Shown here: one piece after another, positions 7,579 through 25,131 of the stretch
Position numbering within the stretch: the first letter of the stretch is position 1
Layout of the letters: each line of letters opens with the position of its first letter
Source of the DNA: an uncultured bacterium
GTDB lineage: Bacteria > Patescibacteriota > Dojkabacteria > J137
DNA: 64,000 bases
Direction of reading: 5' to 3'
NCBI GenBank assembly: GCA_963700155.1
Contig: OY969472.1
Span: 517,059 to 581,058, forward strand
Notes under the pieces: model-generated
What the model was told of the DNA's origin: nothing
Seen by the model: only the letters and a program-made list of their open reading frames with translations
Database searches by the model: none
Program-made: the position numbers and the translations under genes

Positions 7579-8010
7579 TTAAAAAGTCAAATCAAATACG
7601 ACCTCTGGTTTTGACTTCAAATCAGAATACCTTATCCATTTTGGATCTATCACAAACCATCTTTCATCTGGTAAATCAGCATAAACTTTCGATCCTGGAT
7701 TTTTTGTAATATGAATATTTTTAATTCTTTCAACATCATCTCCTTGAACTACATGTGCTTCACCTTCAAATTGAATTGTTATAAATTCATTAAAATCCCA
7801 ACCTAAAACAAATGATACTTTTGGATTTTTCATAAGATAAGAATATTTTCGAGTCTTATCTGAAGTTCCAAATATTATCTTTAAATCATCAGTCTCAGAA
7901 AATGCTAAAACAGCAGAAGTCGGTTGGTCACCATTCACTGTTGAAACAACACAAAGATCATGTGATTTTAGAAAATCTTTTATTAACTGAATCTGATCAG
8001 CCCTATCCAT
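7579..8010 (-). CDS. Pyridoxamine 5'-phosphate oxidase-like FMN-binding split-barrel protein
   Basis: About 140 aa with a pattern typical of the general-stress-protein-26/PNPOx-like family (LCVVSTVNGDQPTSAVLAF…). Confidence 0.55.
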   Translation of the reverse strand: MDRADQIQLIKDFLKSHDLCVVSTVNGDQPTSAVLAFSETDDLKIIFGTSDKTRKYSYLMKNPKVSFVLGWDFNEFITIQFEGEAHVVQGDDVERIKNIHITKNPGSKVYADLPDERWFVIDPKWIRYSDLKSKPEVVFDLTF

Positions 8011-8034
8011 ATATTTAAATGTAATAAATGAACT

Positions 8035-8637
8035 TTATTTATTATATAGTTCTTCAACCATATCCCAGTTAATAACATTCCAGAAAGCATCAATATATTC
8101 CGGTCTTCTATTTTGATATTTCAAATAATAAGCATGTTCCCAAACATCAAGTCCCATAACAGATTTATGATCATGTAGCAAAGTACTATCCTGATTAGGA
8201 AGTTGGTGTAAATGAAAATTTCCTTCATTATCAGCACCTATCATTACCCATCCACTCCCAAAAAGAGTAGATGCTTGTTTTACAAATTCCTCTTTAAAAC
8301 TATTGAAGTCACCCCAAACTTTATTAATCTCTTCGGCAACTCTTCCAATCGGTTCTTTTGAACCATCTTTGCTTAAAATCTGCCAGAATAATGAATGATT
8401 GTAATGTCCGCCACCATTATTCCTAACAGCAGTTCTTATATCTTCGGGAACCGAATCTAAATCCACTAAAAGCTCTTCGATAGTTTTTGACTGCAATTCT
8501 TCATGTCCTTCCAATGCAGCATTGAGTTTTTTAACATATCCTCCATGGTGCAAATCATGATGAATCTCCATAGTTTTAGCATCAATATATGGCTCTAGCG
8601 CGTCAAATGAGTATGGTAATTGAGGTAACTCGAACAT
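8035..8637 (-). CDS. sodA: Fe/Mn superoxide dismutase
   Basis: LPYSFDALEPYID, HHDLHHGGYV, and DVWEHAYYL metal ligands. 200 aa. Confidence 0.9.
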   Translation of the reverse strand: MFELPQLPYSFDALEPYIDAKTMEIHHDLHHGGYVKKLNAALEGHEELQSKTIEELLVDLDSVPEDIRTAVRNNGGGHYNHSLFWQILSKDGSKEPIGRVAEEINKVWGDFNSFKEEFVKQASTLFGSGWVMIGADNEGNFHLHQLPNQDSTLLHDHKSVMGLDVWEHAYYLKYQNRRPEYIDAFWNVINWDMVEELYNK

Positions 8638-8765
8638 ATAGTATTTCCTTAAAAAGTAAACTATAAAAAGTATATCATAGTGAAGTTTTTGAGTCGTAAC
8701 TTCAGTTTGACCTAAATTTAAATTACCACTATAGTGTTAAAATTTTGTAAAGATTAAAAATTTTT

Positions 8766-9641
8766 ATGAACTTAATAACCAGAGATAAAAAATTCATGAA
8801 TACAACAATCACCTTTAAAGTTGTTAAAGGTGATGTAACAACTGTAAAAACCCTAGATTCAATTGAAGCGGCTTTTGGTGAATTTGACAGAATTGTAAAA
8901 CAATATACAAGGTTTGATGAAAACTCTGAACTTTCAAATTTAAATAGAAATAGTGGTAAATGGGTCAAAGTTTCAAGCGAGTTTTTTTGGCTCATAGAAT
9001 ATATGCTTAAACTTGCCAAAAAAACTCGCGGTGCATTCGACCCAACAGTAATAGATTTTCTTGAAGTCTATGGCTATGATAAAAACTATGACTTCTCAAA
9101 ACTTAATAATCCAGAACTTGATAAATTAGTTGAAAAAATCAGTAAAACAAGAAAGTCATGGAAAGATGTTGAATTGAAGAAAAAGAGTAGCGAAGTAAAA
9201 TTGGCAAAGGTCCAAAAAATTGACTTAGGTGGAGTAGGTAAAGGATATGCAATAGATTGTGCTTTTGAAAAATTAAAACAAGTTTCAGATAATTTTCTTA
9301 TTGATGCTGGTGGAGATGTTAGAGCATCTGGCACTAATGAGAAGGGTGAATTATGGAAGGTTGGAATGAAAGATAGAGCAGGAGAAATTGAAGAATTAAT
9401 CGGATATATCGAGCTTAATAATGAAGCCCTCGCATGCTCTGGATCATGGTCTAGAAGAGTGAAACAGTTCCACCATCTTATAAACCCAGCGACTGGAGTT
9501 CCTCAAAATTATTATCGGACAGTTTTTGTTCAAGCTCCTGATGGAATTACTTCAGATTCATGGGCAACTGCAGTTTTTGTTTCGGGAGAAAATGACTTAA
9601 AAATTCCTGAAAATATGAAGATATTCAAAATAACTAATTGA
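8766..9641 (+). CDS. apbE: FAD:protein FMN transferase ApbE family
   Basis: IDLGGVGKGYAIDCAF matches the ApbE signature, and the length fits. The real start may be the Met at 8793. Confidence 0.7.
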   Translation: MNLITRDKKFMNTTITFKVVKGDVTTVKTLDSIEAAFGEFDRIVKQYTRFDENSELSNLNRNSGKWVKVSSEFFWLIEYMLKLAKKTRGAFDPTVIDFLEVYGYDKNYDFSKLNNPELDKLVEKISKTRKSWKDVELKKKSSEVKLAKVQKIDLGGVGKGYAIDCAFEKLKQVSDNFLIDAGGDVRASGTNEKGELWKVGMKDRAGEIEELIGYIELNNEALACSGSWSRRVKQFHHLINPATGVPQNYYRTVFVQAPDGITSDSWATAVFVSGENDLKIPENMKIFKITN

Positions 9642-16670: not shown

Positions 16671-17582
16671 TTATCTAAAAATTAAGACTTGTCTAGCTCT
16701 AGCAGCAATTTGAAAGAGTTTATACCAAAAAGGTTCAATGATAAAATCGACTGTTTCTGCATAATTAATAACTCTCCCTCCAAAGCCAACTTTAAATCTT
16801 GAAAATCCATCATAAATTATCTCTCCACTTTCTGATTTACCAACTGATTTAATTCCCCATAAATCTAAACTTTTAAATCCATTTTGTTTTCCCCATTGGA
16901 TAATTTCCCAAACTAATGCATATGGAGCCATAACATTTTTAAATTCATCACTTGAACCTCCATATGGATAATAAATTACTTCTTCATATAAAAATAATAA
17001 CCAGGAGGCTAGTGGTTTTCCTTGAAAATATGCTGTAGCGATTGTTACAATTTTATCCGATTTTAAAGAATTCCATACTGTAGTTATATATTCTTTGCTT
17101 CGTCCATGGTAACCTTGACGAATAACAGTTGCTTCATAAAGTTTTAGGAATTCAGCAAAAGCATCTTCAGAGTCTGATATTTTAACTTCAACTCCTTTTT
17201 TGTGTGCTAAATTTAAGTTGTATCTATGCTTTTGCTTCATAGAGGCTAATAATTCTTCATCACTTATTGTTAAATTAATAGCTGTATTTTCTTGAAGATG
17301 AACTGGAATTCCTGATTTAAATTGATATTGAGAGGGAAGAGTTGCATTTTCAGAAATTAAATTTTCTGGGTCAATTGTTACATAAACACACTTAGCTTCT
17401 TTAGCTTTTCTATGCAGCTCTTCCCAATTTATCTTTGTTAAATCCGGACGTGGCATATATCCAACTGTTTTACCTATCAATGGTAGAGTAGTTGTTTGAA
17501 AAAAGTAACCTCCTACATCATAAACTTGATTTCCAAGACTCCTTTTACATTCCTTCCAGTATTTTGATTGTAAAAAATGCAT
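16671..17582 (-). CDS. FemAB-family peptidoglycan interpeptide-bridge aminoacyl transferase
   Basis: FemAB/GNAT-like pattern: …LDLWGIKS…FKVGFGG. 303 aa. Confidence 0.65.
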   Translation of the reverse strand: MHFLQSKYWKECKRSLGNQVYDVGGYFFQTTTLPLIGKTVGYMPRPDLTKINWEELHRKAKEAKCVYVTIDPENLISENATLPSQYQFKSGIPVHLQENTAINLTISDEELLASMKQKHRYNLNLAHKKGVEVKISDSEDAFAEFLKLYEATVIRQGYHGRSKEYITTVWNSLKSDKIVTIATAYFQGKPLASWLLFLYEEVIYYPYGGSSDEFKNVMAPYALVWEIIQWGKQNGFKSLDLWGIKSVGKSESGEIIYDGFSRFKVGFGGRVINYAETVDFIIEPFWYKLFQIAARARQVLIFR

Positions 17583-17583
17583 A

Positions 17584-18666
17584 TTAATATCTATCCTTTC
17601 TATAACTCCAGAAATCTATAGCTCTATGTAGTAAATATCTTAAATTATCATTATAAATTTCCATTGGACCAACATAATTAATTTCCTTTCCACCAAAACT
17701 TCTCTTGAATTCAGAAACCCCATTCATAGGATTTTTTGCCTTCTTGTTTTCAGGTAAAGATTTAGGCAGAATTCCCCACATATTATATTTTCTGAAACCT
17801 TTTTCTTTAGCATATTTCATTATCTCCCACTGTAAAAAATATGGAGAGCGGAGCTTTGACATAGTTCTATCAGATGTAGAAGCTCCATGAGTATAATAAG
17901 CTGTTTCATTATAGTAATTAATCAAAGCTCCGCTAATATATTTGGCTCTATATCTTGCTAAGAATATATCCGTCATTCCTTTAGGATTCAATGCATCAAA
18001 CTGCTTTTTGAAATATTCAAAATCATAGTTTCCAAAACCTTTTCTTTGAGTAGTTTCATTCATCAAATCTGAAAAGGCTTTAACTTCTTCAATTGTAGTA
18101 GCTTTTACTAATTCTAGTTCACTTCTTGATGACCGATTTATATTATATCTGGTCGAATCGCTCATTTTCGAGCGCAACTCATCCTCATTTTGATCTAAAT
18201 CTAACTCCCAGACATCTTTAGCTTGAGCAGGGGCGAGGGATGTTTTAAAGCCTAAATTCTTTAAATTTTCACTATATTTTTTAGGGAGCAGTGGATCAAA
18301 TCTGAAAAGAGTAAGGAAATTTTGGAATATATAATCCTGCATAAAGTTTTTTAACTGTGTAAAAAAATCTGCAAATTCTTGTTCATTCATAGGATCACCA
18401 ACTATAACTGGTCCATATGGAACATAAGCATATTTTATAAATTTCCTTCTGTAAATTTCTATATATAAAATTCCTATTTCATATTCTCTGTCGCCAACTT
18501 CAAGGATAATAAAATATTGATCAATTTCTTTTCCTAATGATTTTTGAAAATCGATCCAATTAATTGAAGAAAGAAATGAAGAATTTTCTGCTTCTAAATT
18601 TATTTTTTCCCATATTTGTTTTTTATCTTCACTATATTTTTCAAATTTTAGTAGCACAGAAATCAA
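17584..18666 (-). CDS. FemAB-family peptidoglycan interpeptide-bridge aminoacyl transferase (second paralog)
   Basis: YNMWGILP…EFKRSFGG. 360 aa. In tandem with the previous gene. Confidence 0.65.
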   Translation of the reverse strand: MISVLLKFEKYSEDKKQIWEKINLEAENSSFLSSINWIDFQKSLGKEIDQYFIILEVGDREYEIGILYIEIYRRKFIKYAYVPYGPVIVGDPMNEQEFADFFTQLKNFMQDYIFQNFLTLFRFDPLLPKKYSENLKNLGFKTSLAPAQAKDVWELDLDQNEDELRSKMSDSTRYNINRSSRSELELVKATTIEEVKAFSDLMNETTQRKGFGNYDFEYFKKQFDALNPKGMTDIFLARYRAKYISGALINYYNETAYYTHGASTSDRTMSKLRSPYFLQWEIMKYAKEKGFRKYNMWGILPKSLPENKKAKNPMNGVSEFKRSFGGKEINYVGPMEIYNDNLRYLLHRAIDFWSYRKDRY

Positions 18667-18722: not shown

Positions 18723-19349
18723 TTATTCATCATCTAATAAATTTTTCAATTGTCTTGATTTTGCAAAATTTATAAATCCCCAAGATATACCTATCATAAA
18801 CAGAATTATTCCAGTATTTTTAATTAAATCATCAGATAAAGATTGACCTCTCACTTCTTCTGACATTTTTACCTTTGCAATTAAATACCAAATGTTATCA
18901 ACTAGTGTATCCATTTCCTCTTTTGTAAAACTGGGTCTATATTGTGAATTATATAATGGAGTGTTTTGAGCCTCACTAATATACGCATCAACAACTTTTT
19001 CCAAATCATCTTTTATTAATGCGTATTGTTCAAGAACTTTATTAATCTCAACCTCTAAATCATTAGATAAGTTATAAGTTTTAAGATCTTTCAAAGTTTC
19101 AATAATAGTTCTAATTTTCCCACTTGCTATATAAACTTGAGATTCCCTTAGTTCAGGATTATCTATATAGAAAACATTTTGCATATCACTATAAATCCAT
19201 TGGTTTAAATTATTTATACTACTATTAATCCCATAAATAGATATATCATTTGGATATTTTAGAAGTGAAAAAATTATAATAGCTGTGAAGTATAAATATT
19301 CAAATGGACGAAGGATTGATGATTCCGTTTTTTTGAATTTATCCATCAT
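18723..19349 (-). CDS. Hypothetical membrane protein
   Basis: TM helices near the N-terminus and another near the C-terminus. Confidence 0.4.
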   Translation of the reverse strand: MMDKFKKTESSILRPFEYLYFTAIIIFSLLKYPNDISIYGINSSINNLNQWIYSDMQNVFYIDNPELRESQVYIASGKIRTIIETLKDLKTYNLSNDLEVEINKVLEQYALIKDDLEKVVDAYISEAQNTPLYNSQYRPSFTKEEMDTLVDNIWYLIAKVKMSEEVRGQSLSDDLIKNTGIILFMIGISWGFINFAKSRQLKNLLDDE

Positions 19350-19396: not shown

Positions 19397-20542
19397 TTAA
19401 GCATCTCTTCTTAGAGGCATTAGAAGGTGAACAAATTTTGAATCATCTTTATCTTTAAAAACTGAAGCTGCCAATGGACCTTTAGTTTCAAAGATTATGG
19501 TGTCTCCTTTTATATGACTGACAACATCAGATATATATCGTAAATTGTAAGAAGCATTCAAATCACTTTCTCCATTTACAGAAGTCACTGGAATTAAAGT
19601 TTGATTTTCACCAACTTCAGCTACTACAGATTGCAACATAACAGTTGCGTTTTCTAGGTTGAGGTCAAAAAGTGTTTTGTATCCTAAATTACTTCTAGCA
19701 AAAGTATTAATGATCCTAATCGCAGATTCCAAATCTGACTTTTTGACCTCAAATGAATAGCTGAAAGAATCAGGCATTATCCTTTTATAATCAGGATAAG
19801 GTCCCTCTAATAATCTTATGCTGAATTCTATCTCTTCAAATTTAAAAATAACTTGGGATTTACTTTGACCTAAATAAACTTCAATACTATCAACATCAAC
19901 ATAATCTTGAATAATTTTAACCAATTCGCTTAAATATCTTGCCGGAACAATAACTTGTTCTGTTGGATATTCATTAACATCTTTTACTTTTGCACTACGC
20001 TTTGAAAGTCTAAAACCATCTAAACCAATAAAATTGATCTCACTTTTTTCTTTATCATATTCAAATAAAATTCCACTTTGCTGTATTTTTCCAGCTGATA
20101 AATCTGTTGATGAAGCAAAAATTACTTTATCCATTGATGCTAAAAATTCCTTTGCTGAAATTACAAACAGTGGAGTTTCTGAAACTTCTGGTAAAACAGG
20201 GAATTCGGTTGCCGGGATAGTAGTAAAATTAGCTTTTGAGTTTTCTGTTACAACATCTACTACATTATCATTCAAACTTAGTTCAACGTTATCTCCTACT
20301 GCTGCTGCAACAAAATCTGCAATGTATTTTGCTGATACAGTAACGCTTCCTTCTTGTTCAACTACTCCAGGTATCCACACATTTATCCCCATATCTAAGT
20401 TTGTTGCTGATAGTTTTAAACCATTCTTATTAACATCTAAAAGAACGTTTGAAAGTACTGGTATATTTGGTTTTAAACTAACAGCTCTACTTGTATATTG
20501 TAATGACTTTGAAAGGTTATCTCTGTTTAGTTTGATTTTCAT
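19397..20542 (-). CDS. dnaN: DNA polymerase III beta sliding clamp
   Basis: N-terminus MKIKLNRDNLSKSLQYTSRAVS…PVLSNVLL is typical DnaN. Three-domain length of 381 aa. Confidence 0.85.
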   Translation of the reverse strand: MKIKLNRDNLSKSLQYTSRAVSLKPNIPVLSNVLLDVNKNGLKLSATNLDMGINVWIPGVVEQEGSVTVSAKYIADFVAAAVGDNVELSLNDNVVDVVTENSKANFTTIPATEFPVLPEVSETPLFVISAKEFLASMDKVIFASSTDLSAGKIQQSGILFEYDKEKSEINFIGLDGFRLSKRSAKVKDVNEYPTEQVIVPARYLSELVKIIQDYVDVDSIEVYLGQSKSQVIFKFEEIEFSIRLLEGPYPDYKRIMPDSFSYSFEVKKSDLESAIRIINTFARSNLGYKTLFDLNLENATVMLQSVVAEVGENQTLIPVTSVNGESDLNASYNLRYISDVVSHIKGDTIIFETKGPLAASVFKDKDDSKFVHLLMPLRRDA

Positions 20543-20856
20543 ATCTAAATATAATTTTTAATAAGTAGTTATTTTTAGTTATAGTGTCTGTTGATATGTG
20601 TATATGTTTTAATAATAGCTTATAGAACTTACATTTTCAATGATTTTGAGGTGTGAATAAGTGATGTGGATTAAAAATTAAGCATTTTCGTTGATCGTTA
20701 ATTAAGTATTTGATTATATCCAATTTTTATTGTGATGAGTTTTTGTAGAACTTTTGGGAAAGTTTTCTAGTATCCTATTTTGTTAAGATTTTTAGCGTGT
20801 GGAAAACTGAATAATATTACTGTACAAGAATTATATTAATATTCTATAATCCATAC
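20543..20856. promoter_or_regulatory. AT-rich non-coding region with DnaA-box-like 9-mers (candidate oriC/DUE or dnaN promoter region)
   Basis: tgtgaataa, tgtggatta and tgtggaaaa each lie within 1 mismatch of TGTGGATAA. The region is 314 bp, extremely AT-rich and non-coding. Confidence 0.35.
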
Positions 20857-21795
20857 ATGTTTAATCCTATAGACAATTTAAAATTAAAAGAAGTTGAAAA
20901 TTCAGAAAATAAAACTATTGGAGAAATTGCACAGAAACTTTCTAATTTAATGAGTAATAAATATTTTTTTTACTTTTTTTCTTCTCATTATCACTCTCCA
21001 CAATTAGATATTCATAGAGTTGATGACTTAAATTCTTTTTTATATAAATTTAAAGGTGTTTTTAGAGACATGAGTTCCTATCTTAAAAAGGATAAGGATT
21101 TTATAAATCTATTTCTTGAATTATTAAATTTTTTAGTTAAAGAAAAAGAATTTTATGAAGCTGTTAAATTACTAGATGAAACATTTGGATTTAATTTTCT
21201 ACACTATGAATGGATACAAGAAATTTATAAAAAAGCAATGGATTCTGAAGAGTATTTCCAAGCTTATTACATAATAAAATTAATTGAAAATAGAATTAAG
21301 TTGTTAATGATTACATTTCCAAATGATTCACCACAAGAACTTTTAGAAAAAGAGTATAGAGAATGTTTAGGAATTTTATTGAATAACTTTCTTGATGATA
21401 CTTCTGCAATAACTGAAAGTGAATTATTCGAAAAAACAAAAACATTACCGAAAATTTTAGCAATATTGAAGAATGATGAAATACTAGGTTTTAATATTTT
21501 GAAATCTCGAGACTATACTCCATATTTCATGGATATAATTTTATATGATTTTATTAAAAGAATTGTAGATTTAACTTGGACATTTAGAGGTGAAATATAT
21601 GATATACAATTTGATTCTGAAAATTTGCCTGACATATATTATCTTTATAATATTTCTACAAATACTAGTAAGTATCTTACATTACCAGAAAATAAAATGG
21701 TTCATATTTCACGAGTGGCTGAATATTTAGAACTAAAATTAAAAGATATTGAGTTCATTTTTATTGAAGATAAAAAGCAAGATGTGGAATCTTAA
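20857..21795 (+). CDS. Hypothetical protein (312 aa) inserted between dnaN and dnaA
   Basis: ORF only. No motif recognised. Confidence 0.4.
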   Translation: MFNPIDNLKLKEVENSENKTIGEIAQKLSNLMSNKYFFYFFSSHYHSPQLDIHRVDDLNSFLYKFKGVFRDMSSYLKKDKDFINLFLELLNFLVKEKEFYEAVKLLDETFGFNFLHYEWIQEIYKKAMDSEEYFQAYYIIKLIENRIKLLMITFPNDSPQELLEKEYRECLGILLNNFLDDTSAITESELFEKTKTLPKILAILKNDEILGFNILKSRDYTPYFMDIILYDFIKRIVDLTWTFRGEIYDIQFDSENLPDIYYLYNISTNTSKYLTLPENKMVHISRVAEYLELKLKDIEFIFIEDKKQDVES

Positions 21796-21800
21796 ACTTA

Positions 21801-22523
21801 TTAATTTTCTAAACTACTATAATATGGTGTTTTTTCTAGTAATTCTGGAGGTAGAATAGATAATAAAGATAAATCATTATTAATTCTATAATCATATAGA
21901 TAAATATTATAGGAATCTGTATTCAAACCGTCTTTTCTGTATCGAATATATATATCAATGTGTGCAAGTTTTAAAGTTCCATCAAGATCAAGTTCTTCTG
22001 TAAAAATAAACTTAACTTGCTCAATATTTTCTTCATTGACTCCTATTTTGTAGTTATCAACAAAAAATTTTTTTACAGCTGGAGTAAATCTGGCTGAATA
22101 TTCTACGACCTTAAAGCCATGTATATTAGTATTATTCTTATCTATAAGCTCATGAATTTGGTTTAAAGTAGTAACATTAATAATAGCTGGCTCGAAAAAA
22201 ACTCCTTCTGTATCTGTTTGTTCAATAATTAATGATCCATTTTCGTCAAATTTAAAAACAGCTAGATTATTTCCAAAATAATACTCAAAATGAATATCAG
22301 AAATTGTTAAATCTGAATTCATCTCGCTCCTAGATAAATTTATTTCTCTATAAAGTATATTAAAAAGGGTATATTGAGTTGTCGGCAGTTTAAAAGATTT
22401 TCGAAAATCTACGCCTGACGAAGCTATTCCAGATAAAATACTTAAAATTAAATAAAGAGATAATATCCTTTTTAGAATAAAAGGACGGTTAAAATTGTTT
22501 TGAATATCATCAATTTTATCCAT
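21801..22523 (-). CDS. Hypothetical membrane-anchored protein immediately downstream of dnaA
   Basis: N-terminal TM helix. Lies 5 nt after the dnaA stop. Confidence 0.4.
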   Translation of the reverse strand: MDKIDDIQNNFNRPFILKRILSLYLILSILSGIASSGVDFRKSFKLPTTQYTLFNILYREINLSRSEMNSDLTISDIHFEYYFGNNLAVFKFDENGSLIIEQTDTEGVFFEPAIINVTTLNQIHELIDKNNTNIHGFKVVEYSARFTPAVKKFFVDNYKIGVNEENIEQVKFIFTEELDLDGTLKLAHIDIYIRYRKDGLNTDSYNIYLYDYRINNDLSLLSILPPELLEKTPYYSSLEN

Positions 22524-22528
22524 TAAAT

Positions 22529-23938
22529 TTATTCTACATCCTCCGTTACAGCGGCATTATCTTGAATATTTGTTATTACTTGTGCAACTTGAGAATTAAA
22601 TCCATCCTGAATCATCATTTTGCTTTTAATCTTATCAAGTGCATGAAGCACAGTTGTATGATCAGTCCTTTTTAAATATTTTGCGACTTCTTCAAGTTTA
22701 TAACTAAATTCTTCTCTTAAGATATACATTGCAACTTGTCTTGCCAAAGCCAACTCCTTTGTTCTTCTCGGACCTTTTAAATCTTTTACAGTAACGCCAA
22801 ATGATTTAGCAACTTCTCTAATAACTTGAGGCACTTTAATCTGGGATCTTTTTGTTTGCGAATCTTTTCCAATTGTATGTGCAACTTCTTCTAATGTTAA
22901 ATCTCCATTCGGTTTCATTTGATTAAATAAAGCTACTTTTTGAAGTGCCCCTTCAAGCTCTCTTACATTATCCGAAATATTTCTAGCCAAGTACTCTAAA
23001 ATTGGCATTTTTAAATTATAGCCGGAGTTTTCAGATTTTCTGTATAAGATTGCAAGGCGAGTTTCATAATCCGGATTTGAAATATCAACTACCATCCCGC
23101 CTTGCATTCTAGTTCTTAATCTACTTTCCATATTTTGAATATCCTCAGGTCTTCTATCGGCAATTAAAATAATTTGTTTACCAGCATTATAAAGTTCATT
23201 GAAAGTATTGAAGAATTCTTCTTGAGTGTGAACCCATTTTGAAATAAGTTGCATATCATCAATAATAAGCATATCCGTTGGTCTATATTTAGCTCTAAAT
23301 TTCTCCATTTGCCCTGTTTTAATTCCTTTTACCATCTCATTCAAAAATCCTTCAGATGGTGTATAAATTATTTTTTTACTAGGATTCCTTTCTAAAATTG
23401 ATCTACCAATTGCTTGTGCCAAGTGTGTTTTCCCAACACCGGTTTTCCCATGAATAAATAAAGGATTGTATGATTGACCAGGTCTTTCAATAATTGCTAA
23501 AGCTGCAGCATGTGCAATTTTATTTGCATTTCCTACAATATAATTTGACATTGTATATTTAGGATTTAATCCGGATTTAGTAACAGCTTCAATTACATTA
23601 CCCATAAATCCATTCTCAACATCAAGTAAAGGTGAGGATGATATATTTTTTGGTTCATTTTCAGCTTCATCTTCTTTTTGTTCATGAGTAACTTCAAAAA
23701 CTGGATTTAAAACATCTCCATAAACATAACTAATTGTGTCTTTAATCATTTTTTCGTATCTATTTTTTATCCAATCAGAAATGAAGGGATTAGGTACTCC
23801 GATTATTGCTTTATTACCATCTATTTTAACTAATCTAGTTTCTTGAAAATATGTTTTAAATTGAGCAGGTGCGTCCAGTTTAATCTCTATTTGAGCTAGG
23901 GTCGTTTTCCAGAGCTGTTTTTCATCTCTAATTTTCAT
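22529..23938 (-). CDS. dnaA: Chromosomal replication initiator DnaA
   Basis: AAA+ Walker A/B (GKTGVGKTHL, DDMQ), C-terminal DnaA-box binding helix. The likely start is the internal Met (MKIRDEKQLWKTTLAQ), whereas the ORF track extends to 23992. Confidence 0.9.
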   Translation of the reverse strand: MKIRDEKQLWKTTLAQIEIKLDAPAQFKTYFQETRLVKIDGNKAIIGVPNPFISDWIKNRYEKMIKDTISYVYGDVLNPVFEVTHEQKEDEAENEPKNISSSPLLDVENGFMGNVIEAVTKSGLNPKYTMSNYIVGNANKIAHAAALAIIERPGQSYNPLFIHGKTGVGKTHLAQAIGRSILERNPSKKIIYTPSEGFLNEMVKGIKTGQMEKFRAKYRPTDMLIIDDMQLISKWVHTQEEFFNTFNELYNAGKQIILIADRRPEDIQNMESRLRTRMQGGMVVDISNPDYETRLAILYRKSENSGYNLKMPILEYLARNISDNVRELEGALQKVALFNQMKPNGDLTLEEVAHTIGKDSQTKRSQIKVPQVIREVAKSFGVTVKDLKGPRRTKELALARQVAMYILREEFSYKLEEVAKYLKRTDHTTVLHALDKIKSKMMIQDGFNSQVAQVITNIQDNAAVTEDVE

Positions 23939-24020
23939 AGGTTTAAAGTAATGGTTAAAGAATATATACTTAAATGAAATAAGTATTTGCAAAAGCTATT
24001 TTTTTAGTGCTGAATTTTTT

Positions 24021-24052
24021 TATTATACACAAAAAATTATCCACGTGGATAA
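24021..24052. promoter_or_regulatory. DnaA-box cluster upstream of dnaA: ttatacaca followed by the palindromic pair TTATCCACGTGGATAA
   Basis: The perfect 16-bp palindrome at 24037-24052 consists of two inverted consensus-like DnaA boxes (TTATCCACg). Confidence 0.55.
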
Positions 24053-24112
24053 CTTATAGTATTTTTTTGTATTAATCTTATTATTATAGACTGGTTTGTT
24101 ATATAATTATTT

Positions 24113-24349
24113 ATGTTTAAATCAATTGCAAAATTTTTAATAAAAACTTACCAGAAATTGTTTTCTTTCGATCACTCTTTTTGGGCGTCTTGGGTTGGAA
24201 TGCCTGTTTGCAGGTTTACACCAACATGCTCACAATATACTTATGAAGCTATTGATAAGTACGGGGTTTTTAAAGGAAGTTTTATTGGGTTTAAAAGAAT
24301 TTTAAGGTGTAATCCTTTTACAAAAGGCGGGTATGATCCGGTTCCTTAA
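24113..24349 (+). CDS. yidD: Membrane protein insertion efficiency factor YidD
   Basis: 78 aa with the conserved …[15 protein letters not shown]…G… pattern. Confidence 0.8.
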
Positions 24350-25131
24350 GAAATTCCTTTAAAAACCCCTACCTCATCATTATTTATAGAAACTATATCT
24401 ACTTTAAATCTTTTAGAAGCTTTTATTAACTCAGTTTTATAAGTTAGTTTTGAAACATAATCTTCTAAAGATTTCAAAATTCCTAAATCTTTACCAATTA
24501 TGATGTATTCTTTTCCATTTATTTTATTATCTGCTGCTCCAAATTTATTTCTTTTCTTATGATCAGGACTTCTTTTTATTAGTAAAGCATTCTTGTTTCT
24601 TAAATTAAATTTTTGATTAAAAAACGAATCACTATCTTTAAATCTAGATTCCCAAGATTGATCACCTTTGGAAACTATGATGTTGGGCAGATTAATTTCA
24701 TAATCCTTTATCTTTTCTTCTGATAAATAATTTTTTAATAATTCAAGAATATACACACTTCTTAAAAAACTTGTATCTAGCTTAAAATTTTTAAGTTTAA
24801 TTATATTTCCGTGTTTTATATCCCCTTTGTAATACTTCCTAATATTAATACCGGATTGGATATTTGTTGGGTTAAATATGTTAGAAAAATACTGGTAAAA
24901 ATCGATATTATATTCTAAAAAATCTATAAACTCCTTTTTAAGATAGATTGGTATATTTGTTTGTGCTGAGTTAAATTTTTCTGCAGATGAATTTTTAACA
25001 TTATGATTTAATTCTGATAAAAATTCATCCAAAATAAAATGAATATTCTTTAAATGTTTTTGCTTTACCTCTTTATTTGTTTTTAATTTTAAAACTCTTG
25101 GGCCAAAATCAATTAAATACTCGTAAATCAT
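24346..25131 (-). CDS. Hypothetical protein (261 aa)
   Basis: ORF only. Confidence 0.4.

Follow-up and report, generated by a model that had tools for sequence, protein, structure and literature searches.

In a 64-kb stretch of contig OY969472.1 (hereafter the window), the 314 bp directly upstream of dnaN (20543-20856) probably form the chromosomal origin of replication (oriC), and a palindromic double DnaA box upstream of dnaA would serve as the autoregulatory operator of that gene. The window is assigned to the chromosome of a member of the Dojkabacteria (Candidate Phyla Radiation (CPR)/Patescibacteria), because its DnaA shares 66-73% identity with the DnaA proteins from 11 genomes, which carry the label Candidatus Dojkabacteria or are "uncultured Saccharibacteria" metagenome-assembled genomes; the source contig has a length of 1,140,724 bp. 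The dnaN of the window is 57-65% identical to the dnaN of nine relatives. An earlier note, made from the letters of the window, had proposed that either of two regions on the two sides of dnaA could be oriC, the two together forming a candidate bipartite origin. An origin within this 3.5-kb stretch is very probable in view of the box clusters, the GC skew and a switch in gene orientation, whereas the standing of the two regions as equal halves is not supported, as they behave as independent modules in the relatives. The dnaN-upstream region was chosen over the dnaA-upstream region because the skew minima and the gene divergence of the relatives lie at the dnaN-upstream module. The genes and intergenic regions of the locus are as follows.

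19397-20542, minus strand: dnaN, DNA polymerase III beta clamp, 381 aa, with the N-terminal, central and C-terminal Pfam DNA_pol3_beta domains
20543-20856, no strand: dnaN-orf312 intergenic region, 314 bp, 23% G+C, the best oriC candidate
20857-21795, plus strand: orf312, an orphan, convergent with orf240 and divergent from dnaN
21801-22523, minus strand: orf240, an orphan with a predicted N-terminal membrane anchor, beginning 5 nt past the dnaA stop
22529-23938, minus strand: dnaA, 469 aa, with Pfam DnaA_N, Bac_DnaA and Bac_DnaA_C (E 5e-59)
23939-24112, no strand: dnaA-yidD intergenic region, 174 bp, 19.5% G+C
24113-24349, plus strand: yidD, divergent from dnaA, Pfam YidD (E 4e-27)

That dnaA and dnaN are split by a membrane-anchored 240-aa gene and a divergent 312-aa gene had been described in the earlier note, and coordinates, strands and Pfam assignments all agree with this description; the 5-nt distance between dnaA and orf240 and the 314-bp gap beside dnaN are both exact. 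The G+C content of the window is about 30%. The open reading frame (ORF) that holds dnaA reaches back to a TTG at 23992, and the dnaA genes of the relatives all begin at the equivalent of an ATG at 23938 (MKI[KR]..., or MKVR in some of the 11); this ATG (MKIR...), and not the TTG, is almost certainly the start of dnaA, and the dnaA-yidD gap is therefore 174 bp long. The DHTTV motif, the base-contacting motif in domain IV of DnaA, is intact in the window protein, so canonical box recognition would be expected. An Rfam scan of 18.5-25.5 kb returned zero RNA families, and no tRNAs were found near the dnaA-dnaN locus.

DnaA boxes cluster on both sides of dnaA

A search of the window for the DnaA box TTATCCACA yielded no perfect match and 30 matches with one mismatch, against 21 expected, an unremarkable total. 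At least three one-mismatch boxes within 314 bp were found at just two places in the 64 kb, the dnaN-upstream gap and the dnaA-yidD gap (Poisson P per site of about 3e-4 and about 5e-5), and these sole two clusters are the ones that the earlier note had placed on both sides of dnaA. The three box-like 9-mers reported for the 314-bp gap are TTATTCACA, TAATCCACA and TTTTCCACA, each one mismatch from the perfect box; all of them are minus-strand matches, located at 20652, 20665 and 20798, and two more matches lie just inside dnaN. The dnaA-upstream cluster comprises matches at 24023, 24037 and 24044, and here too the earlier reading holds, with a TTATACACA box at 24023-24031 and a perfect 16-bp palindrome, TTATCCACGTGGATAA, formed by the last two matches at 24037-24052. 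A box-rich stretch at 56-57 kb was considered as a further site and ruled out, as it is coding sequence.

A multi-box module upstream of dnaN is conserved in ten genomes

The elements recognized in the dnaN-upstream gap, listed from the distal end toward dnaN, are the following.

20798-20806, minus strand: distal DnaA box TTTTCCACA, one mismatch
20652-20673, minus strand: tandem box pair TAATCCACA-tcac-TTATTCACA, co-oriented and 4 nt apart, with TAATCCACA at 20665-20673 and TTATTCACA at 20652-20660
20612-20640, minus strand: promoter-like site for dnaN, TTGAAA-17-TATTAT, 10/12 matches in the promoter scan
20597-20605, minus strand: box C, ATATACACA, two mismatches, at -63 from the dnaN ATG
20589-20596, minus strand: degenerate box-like 8-mer TATCAACA, abutting box C
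20543-20584, minus strand: AT-rich stretch, a putative unwinding element with a degenerate DnaA-trio-like tract, running from an invariant CTA (20582-20584, as TAG) to the dnaN ATG

An alignment of the 160 bp preceding dnaN covered the window and nine relatives, which are the ten genomes with a visible dnaN. The same module was found in all ten, although their DnaA proteins are just about 70% identical to one another: the tandem pair (TAATCCACAtcacTTATTCACA in the window) is followed after about 25 nt by a -10-like element and, after about 17 nt more, by a third box abutting the box-like 8-mer, and from there a 4-nt G+C-richer spacer, the invariant CTA, a tract rich in CTA, TTA and CTT and AT-rich DNA lead to the dnaN ATG. 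The third box, box C, is conserved in 10/10 genomes at -58 to -68 from the dnaN ATG (TTATACACA in most, ATATACACA in the window), with one mismatch in five relatives and two in four, and its distance to the CTA is exactly 12 nt in every genome. The tandem pair is readable with equal 4-nt spacing and orientation in the nine relatives, with the first box degenerate in some and a different spacing in one (L001). In addition, the relatives carry a dnaN -10 element reading CCTGTTATAAT at the matching alignment columns, and distal boxes are also found in them at varying positions and orientations. Over the 200 bp upstream of dnaN, the ten genomes together hold 19 one-mismatch boxes (9.5 per kb vs a background of 0.47 per kb, a 20-fold excess; P about 1e-18), 18 of which share the orientation of dnaN. 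Wherever dnaA lies and whichever way it points, the module is found before dnaN, also in the genomes in which dnaA lies 5.3 kb off (L001), lies on the other side (L003) or is inverted (L006 and L009). A generic promoter scan returned 34 sites vs 38.8 in shuffled sequence, with no excess, and the promoter assignments given here therefore rest on conservation.

In the mechanism that we propose, DnaA would bind the co-oriented boxes, namely the distal box, the tandem pair and the dnaN-proximal box with its abutting degenerate box, and would then oligomerize toward the AT-rich stretch that ends at the dnaN start codon and open it, with the dnaN promoter presumably embedded in the origin. The palindrome upstream of dnaA would be a separate operator at which DnaA represses its own promoter, and at most a dispensable helper raising the local DnaA concentration; by analogy with known origins, such a helper role may be exerted via looping.

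The layout of the module can be compared with the basal unwinding system (BUS) of bacterial origins, which has been described as a DnaA box with up to two mismatches, a spacer of 0-16 nt (peak 10-13) and a run of three or more DnaA-trios, which read NAN on the trio strand (PMC8287927). The strand complementary to the trios of Bacillus subtilis reads 5'-CTACTATTACTTCTACTA-3' (PMC10201434), and the tract of the relatives, CTATTACTAnATACTTCTA, resembles it. As at B. subtilis incC, co-oriented boxes, an abutting weaker box, a G+C-richer spacer, a CTA/TTA/CTT-rich tract and an AT-rich stretch precede the dnaN start; the two mismatches of ATATACACA and the 12-nt distance from box to CTA, which falls within the 10-13-nt peak, are also BUS-like. 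Unlike the BUS, the Dojkabacteria module has a conserved -10-like promoter element inside it. At least three consecutive trios at the CTA are present in five of the nine relatives. The trio rule was discarded as evidence because it is too permissive, being passed by chance at 125 of the 287 window boxes with up to two mismatches (44%). Because of this rate, and because the window tract itself departs from the rule, we do not claim that the window module belongs to the BUS, and describe its layout as apparently parallel to that of B. subtilis incC.

As a separate observation, the final nucleotides before the dnaN ATG (20543-20556 in the window and their equivalents in the relatives) are conserved in the form ATTAATAG(A/T)T and lack a Shine-Dalgarno-like run of purines; they may reflect an unusual mode of translation initiation in the lineage or a constraint from the origin. 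Two box-like 9-mers also stand within dnaN at 20371-20391, about 150 nt into the gene (GTATCCACA and TTATCCCCA, 3 nt apart). They are kept in most relatives and encode the conserved peptide G-I-N-V-W-I-P, so that they may be a by-product of codon constraint, or they may be extra DnaA sites flanking the origin.

GC skew and gene orientation

Across the window, the cumulative GC skew is lowest at 24852 and dips to another, local minimum at about 20500. To the left of 20543, the minus strand holds 61% of the coding bases; to the right of 24112, the plus strand holds 79% of them. Because the skew minima and this switch in gene orientation both fall there, the origin very probably lies within 20.5-25 kb of the window. 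Skew over 4 kb mostly mirrors gene orientation, and the window skew offers no choice between the two gaps. The relatives favour one of them: in L001, L003, L004 and L006, the local minimum of cumulative GC skew is found no more than about 270 bp from the dnaN-upstream module, with the palindrome 2-7 kb away, and in L001, L003 and L006 every intervening gene points away from the module. Duplex stability, calculated as nearest-neighbour free energy, was rejected as a discriminator, since segments that rank among the least stable 0.1-0.7% occur in both gaps. In the dnaN gap, the 40-bp duplex of lowest stability is 20543-20582, which belongs to the least stable 0.06% window-wide, and the dnaA-yidD gap has a very unstable segment from about 24049, beside the palindrome, within the least stable 0.1%.

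A probable palindromic operator accompanies dnaA

The elements recognized upstream of dnaA in the window are the following.

24022-24052, minus strand: putative dnaA promoter/operator, with the double box TTATCCACGTGGATAA at 24037-24052 and a -10-like TATAAT at 24027-24022 that overlaps the TTATACACA box at 24023-24031

Of 12 genomes, 10 have the exact 15-mer TTATCCACGTGGATA of the palindrome; L002 carries a single substitution in it, and L009 has a half-site. The 15-mer occupies the whole 17-18-nt spacer from a TTTACA to a -10-like hexamer in nine relatives, the hexamer being TATATT in eight and TATCCT in L003, which is how an operator within a sigma-70-type promoter would be arranged. The window and L002 differ from the others in promoter geometry, in that a -35-like hexamer is absent and the TATAAT lies 9-10 nt downstream of the palindrome (9 nt in the window). 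Nothing in the dnaA-yidD gap is conserved apart from the palindrome and the hexamers of the promoter, and wherever dnaA lies the palindrome goes with it. Because the palindrome sits in the spacer between -35 and -10 in most relatives and moves with dnaA, it is probably the autoregulatory operator of this gene. As in the autoregulated dnaA promoters of Escherichia coli (dnaAp) and B. subtilis, DnaA boxes overlap the dnaA core promoter; unlike in those systems, the putative operator is a perfect 16-bp palindrome of two inverted boxes overlapping by 2 bp, and it fills the promoter spacer in most relatives.

A metagenome scan with TTATCCACGTGGATA gave 120 occurrences, mostly on unrelated contigs, of which six carry dnaA; two Dojkabacteria contigs end inside dnaA, and the scan contributed no added synteny information. 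The 15-mer does stand beside dnaA in three non-CPR metagenome contigs of 36-50% G+C, between dnaA and dnaN in two (L089 at 2647 and L164 at 4430) and upstream of dnaA in the third (L134 at 3108). The overlapping inverted double box may thus be a recurrent design.

The two sites are separable in the relatives

The loci of the 11 relatives were oriented on dnaA, and the genes of the window were located in them by tblastn. One flank carries ftsK, orf212, orf195, orf261 and yidD, the opposite flank carries dnaN, femA and femB, and both are syntenic in nearly all loci. The arrangement between dnaA and dnaN varies as follows.

L007, L011, L005 and L010: dnaA-dnaN gaps of 908, 931, 1010 and 1119 bp, respectively
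L004: dnaA-dnaN gap of 1737 bp
L001: dnaA-dnaN gap of 5270 bp
L002 (complete chromosome): dnaN not within 8 kb of dnaA
L006 and L009: dnaA alone inverted, so that dnaA and dnaN diverge
L003: yidD-dnaA block inverted

Module and palindrome are closest in L009 (about 0.25 kb apart, with both in one 370-bp divergent intergenic region); the distance is 2-4 kb in the window and L003-L007, 6.7 kb in L001 and over 9 kb in L002. In L003, L006 and L009 the orientation of one relative to the other is flipped. The gene content of the interval between dnaA and dnaN is different in every relative, where there are genes in it at all.

L011: zero ORFs of at least 60 aa
L005, L007 and L010: one or two small acidic ORFs on the opposite strand
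L001, L004 and L006: a HAD-like gene
L001 and L003: enolase
L003: also a putative pyruvate kinase, judged from N-terminal sequence alone
L002: a 2017-aa protein

Alternative placements of the origin

Several points weigh against an origin in the dnaN-upstream gap. The global skew minimum of the window at 24852 is nearer to the dnaA-upstream gap, and the dnaN-upstream gap coincides with a local minimum. If the origin is in the dnaN-upstream gap, dnaA and orf240 are transcribed head-on to replication. The conserved module also resembles a promoter and leader of dnaN, and part of its conservation could therefore be purely transcriptional. Finally, the window tract, CTATAACTAAAAATAACTAC, has a trio run of one at the CTA, where the BUS has at least three, and its trinucleotide periodicity is broken.

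A true bipartite origin, in which both box regions are needed and DnaA at the palindrome loops to the dnaN-upstream region as the site of unwinding, is a rather unlikely alternative. In its favour, two box clusters flank dnaA and both are conserved in the lineage, and it has parallels in the known bipartite origins (B. subtilis incAB and incC, Helicobacter pylori oriC1 and oriC2, and Mycoplasma), which likewise have box sites on both sides of dnaA. An upstream box of B. subtilis can work by looping at several distances and in either orientation (PMC6669920), and the upstream site of H. pylori, oriC1, likewise overlaps the dnaA promoter (PMC3479198). Only dnaA separates the two parts of the known bipartite origins, whereas here two unrelated genes also lie between them; moreover, site separation and orientation vary among the Dojkabacteria, so that the two parts are not kept as a unit, and the upstream "cluster" is essentially one palindrome. 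Separations between 0.25 kb and over 9 kb, together with a flipped orientation in three genomes, suggest independent modules, and the position of the palindrome in the promoter spacer of nine relatives is explained by autoregulation alone. Because both spacing and orientation vary so freely, an obligatory bipartite origin appears unlikely.

That the origin is the dnaA-yidD gap, with the dnaN-upstream boxes forming just a DnaA-controlled dnaN promoter, is improbable. The position of the global skew minimum would fit this placement, as would the low G+C content of the gap with its very unstable segment beside the palindrome and the conserved -10-like element within the dnaN-upstream module; dnaA and orf240 would also be co-directional with replication. 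Set against this, conservation in the dnaA-yidD gap is confined to the palindrome and the hexamers, the co-oriented multi-box array that is typical of origins sits before dnaN, and in L001, L003, L004 and L006 the local skew minimum is at the dnaN-upstream module and 2-7 kb from the palindrome, as is the divergence of genes.

An origin elsewhere on the chromosome, with both box sites acting as transcriptional operators only, is very improbable. The stretch analysed spans 64 kb of a 1.14-Mb chromosome, the skew to the left of the region is noisy, and the dnaA of L002 does not coincide with a local skew minimum; even so, gene orientation and skew switch inside the window, no other box cluster occurs in the window, and a conserved multi-box module adjoins dnaN. 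A multi-box module next to dnaN is the commonest context of bacterial origins. Taken together, these comparisons favour the dnaN-upstream gap as oriC, with the palindrome as operator of dnaA.

The genes inserted between dnaA and dnaN

Both orf240 and orf312 show the coding pattern GC1>GC2>GC3 and are real ORFs, far too long for chance open frames at this base composition; 240 stop-free codons have a probability of about 1e-9, an estimate based on about 0.08 stops per random codon. At 22.9% G+C, orf312 is the lowest of the 52 window genes, with orf240 third and orf208 fourth lowest. The orf312 product is predicted to be cytoplasmic and mostly helical, and the gene has its own promoter-like site at 20821-20850. 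The orf240 product has an N-terminal hydrophobic helix, with residues 13-32 helical in the AlphaFold2 model, and its gene is probably co-transcribed with dnaA. Single-sequence AlphaFold2 models were poor for both (pLDDT 48 for orf240 and 52 for orf312).

Neither protein has a match in Pfam, PHROG, NCBIfam or PADLOC, and each matched only itself among 5.8e9 proteins in a word-indexed search. A full HMMER search of orf312 against 1.84e9 representatives returned one further protein, P0003 (E 4e-6; 25-26% identity; 25% over 197 residues), which is itself an orphan. The contig that carries P0003 is 5.9 kb long, and the gene divergent from it there encodes a 216-aa protein that lacks a recorded Pfam match and is not a recognisable DnaN. 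The search of the 11 relatives by tblastn gave no match to either gene, and the ORFs in the intervals of the relatives are unrelated to both. The synteny check suggested earlier, for the same two genes at an unrelated locus, thus found that the relatives carry neither gene at all. No flanking direct or inverted repeats and no mobile-element genes were found around the pair. These comparisons fit a view of the two genes as cargo, either evolving fast or acquired recently, in a hypervariable interval close to the origin.

The earlier note had also suggested that the inserted genes may be lineage-specific origin-associated factors, and this is not supported, given that no homologue was found in the 11 relatives and that the interval cargo differs from genome to genome. 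A role of either or both in regulating initiation or otherwise in origin function is scarcely credible: position is what speaks for it, with orf240 5 nt past dnaA and orf312, with its promoter-like site, abutting the box cluster, whereas the origin elements are conserved in relatives that have no homologue, searches of billions of proteins leave both as orphans, the orf240 product has a predicted membrane anchor, another orphan (orf208) lies beyond dnaN, and the sole homologue of orf312 does not stand beside a recognisable dnaN.

Neighbouring genes and further variable intervals

On the other side of dnaN, orf208 (18723-19349, minus strand) lies between dnaN and the first of the FemAB-family genes. 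It is an orphan with a hydrophobic stretch near its C-terminus and has no counterpart in any relative, where a FemAB-family gene directly follows dnaN; orphan insertion is therefore not limited to the interval between dnaA and dnaN. Two tandem FemAB-family paralogues (peptidoglycan interpeptide-bridge transferase-like) are located downstream of dnaN at 16671-18666 on the minus strand, and they are syntenic with dnaN, with both paralogues present in five of nine relatives and at least one in all nine.

A HAD-like gene of about 180 aa, provisionally named from a DFDDTL motif, abuts the dnaN-upstream box cluster in three relatives (L001 12603-13145, L004 2994-3548 and L006 6072-6623) and is 38-44% identical between these loci. 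Enolase adjoins it in L001 and is near dnaN in L003, and the HAD-like gene is not at the matching position in the window. This gene may be an ancestral neighbour of oriC. In addition, the dnaA cassette is inverted independently in L003, L006 and L009 (dnaA at 8001-9400 in each) with flanks otherwise conserved, which points to repeated small inversions beside the origin.

A second variable interval is the one from orf261 to yidD: in the window these genes share 4 nt, in L002 they are adjacent, and in other relatives they lie 1.4-2.5 kb apart. In the window, orf261 (24346-25131, minus strand) overlaps the stop of yidD; at 23.3% G+C it is the second-lowest gene of the window, its only Pfam match is a sub-threshold ApbE-like one, and it is 22-34% identical to the versions of the relatives. 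Coordinates of this interval are as follows.

Window: 24113-25131
L001: 5237-7707
L005: 4603-7583
L007: 3512-6785
L011: 4206-7438

Implications

A literature search turned up no replication origin of Dojkabacteria or of any other CPR genome. The mechanism proposed here is a familiar one, with DnaA boxes, an AT-rich element by dnaN and an autoregulated dnaA, and the finding is largely ordinary and fits established origin biology. The points of note are an exactly conserved, B. subtilis-like module in a CPR lineage, a putative operator that is a perfect palindrome, and a dnaA that is uncoupled from oriC-dnaN with rapid gene turnover. More speculatively, and as a tentative view only, the origin of the Dojkabacteria could be anchored to dnaN and not to dnaA, with the interval between dnaA and oriC a lineage-wide hotspot of gene turnover, in which orphans are inserted or born beside the origin and past the dnaA promoter, the dnaA cassette repeatedly inverts and orf240 is possibly a strain-specific factor with its expression coupled to initiation. 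For genome analysis, adjacency of dnaA and dnaN is not safe to assume in Dojkabacteria. The analysis yields a concrete, conserved oriC model for this group, consisting of canonical TTATnCACA boxes, a tandem pair spaced by 4 nt, and a box followed after 12 nt by CTA beside dnaN, and this model would aid the placement of genome start points, coverage-based estimates of growth and the annotation of dnaA autoregulation in such uncultured bacteria.

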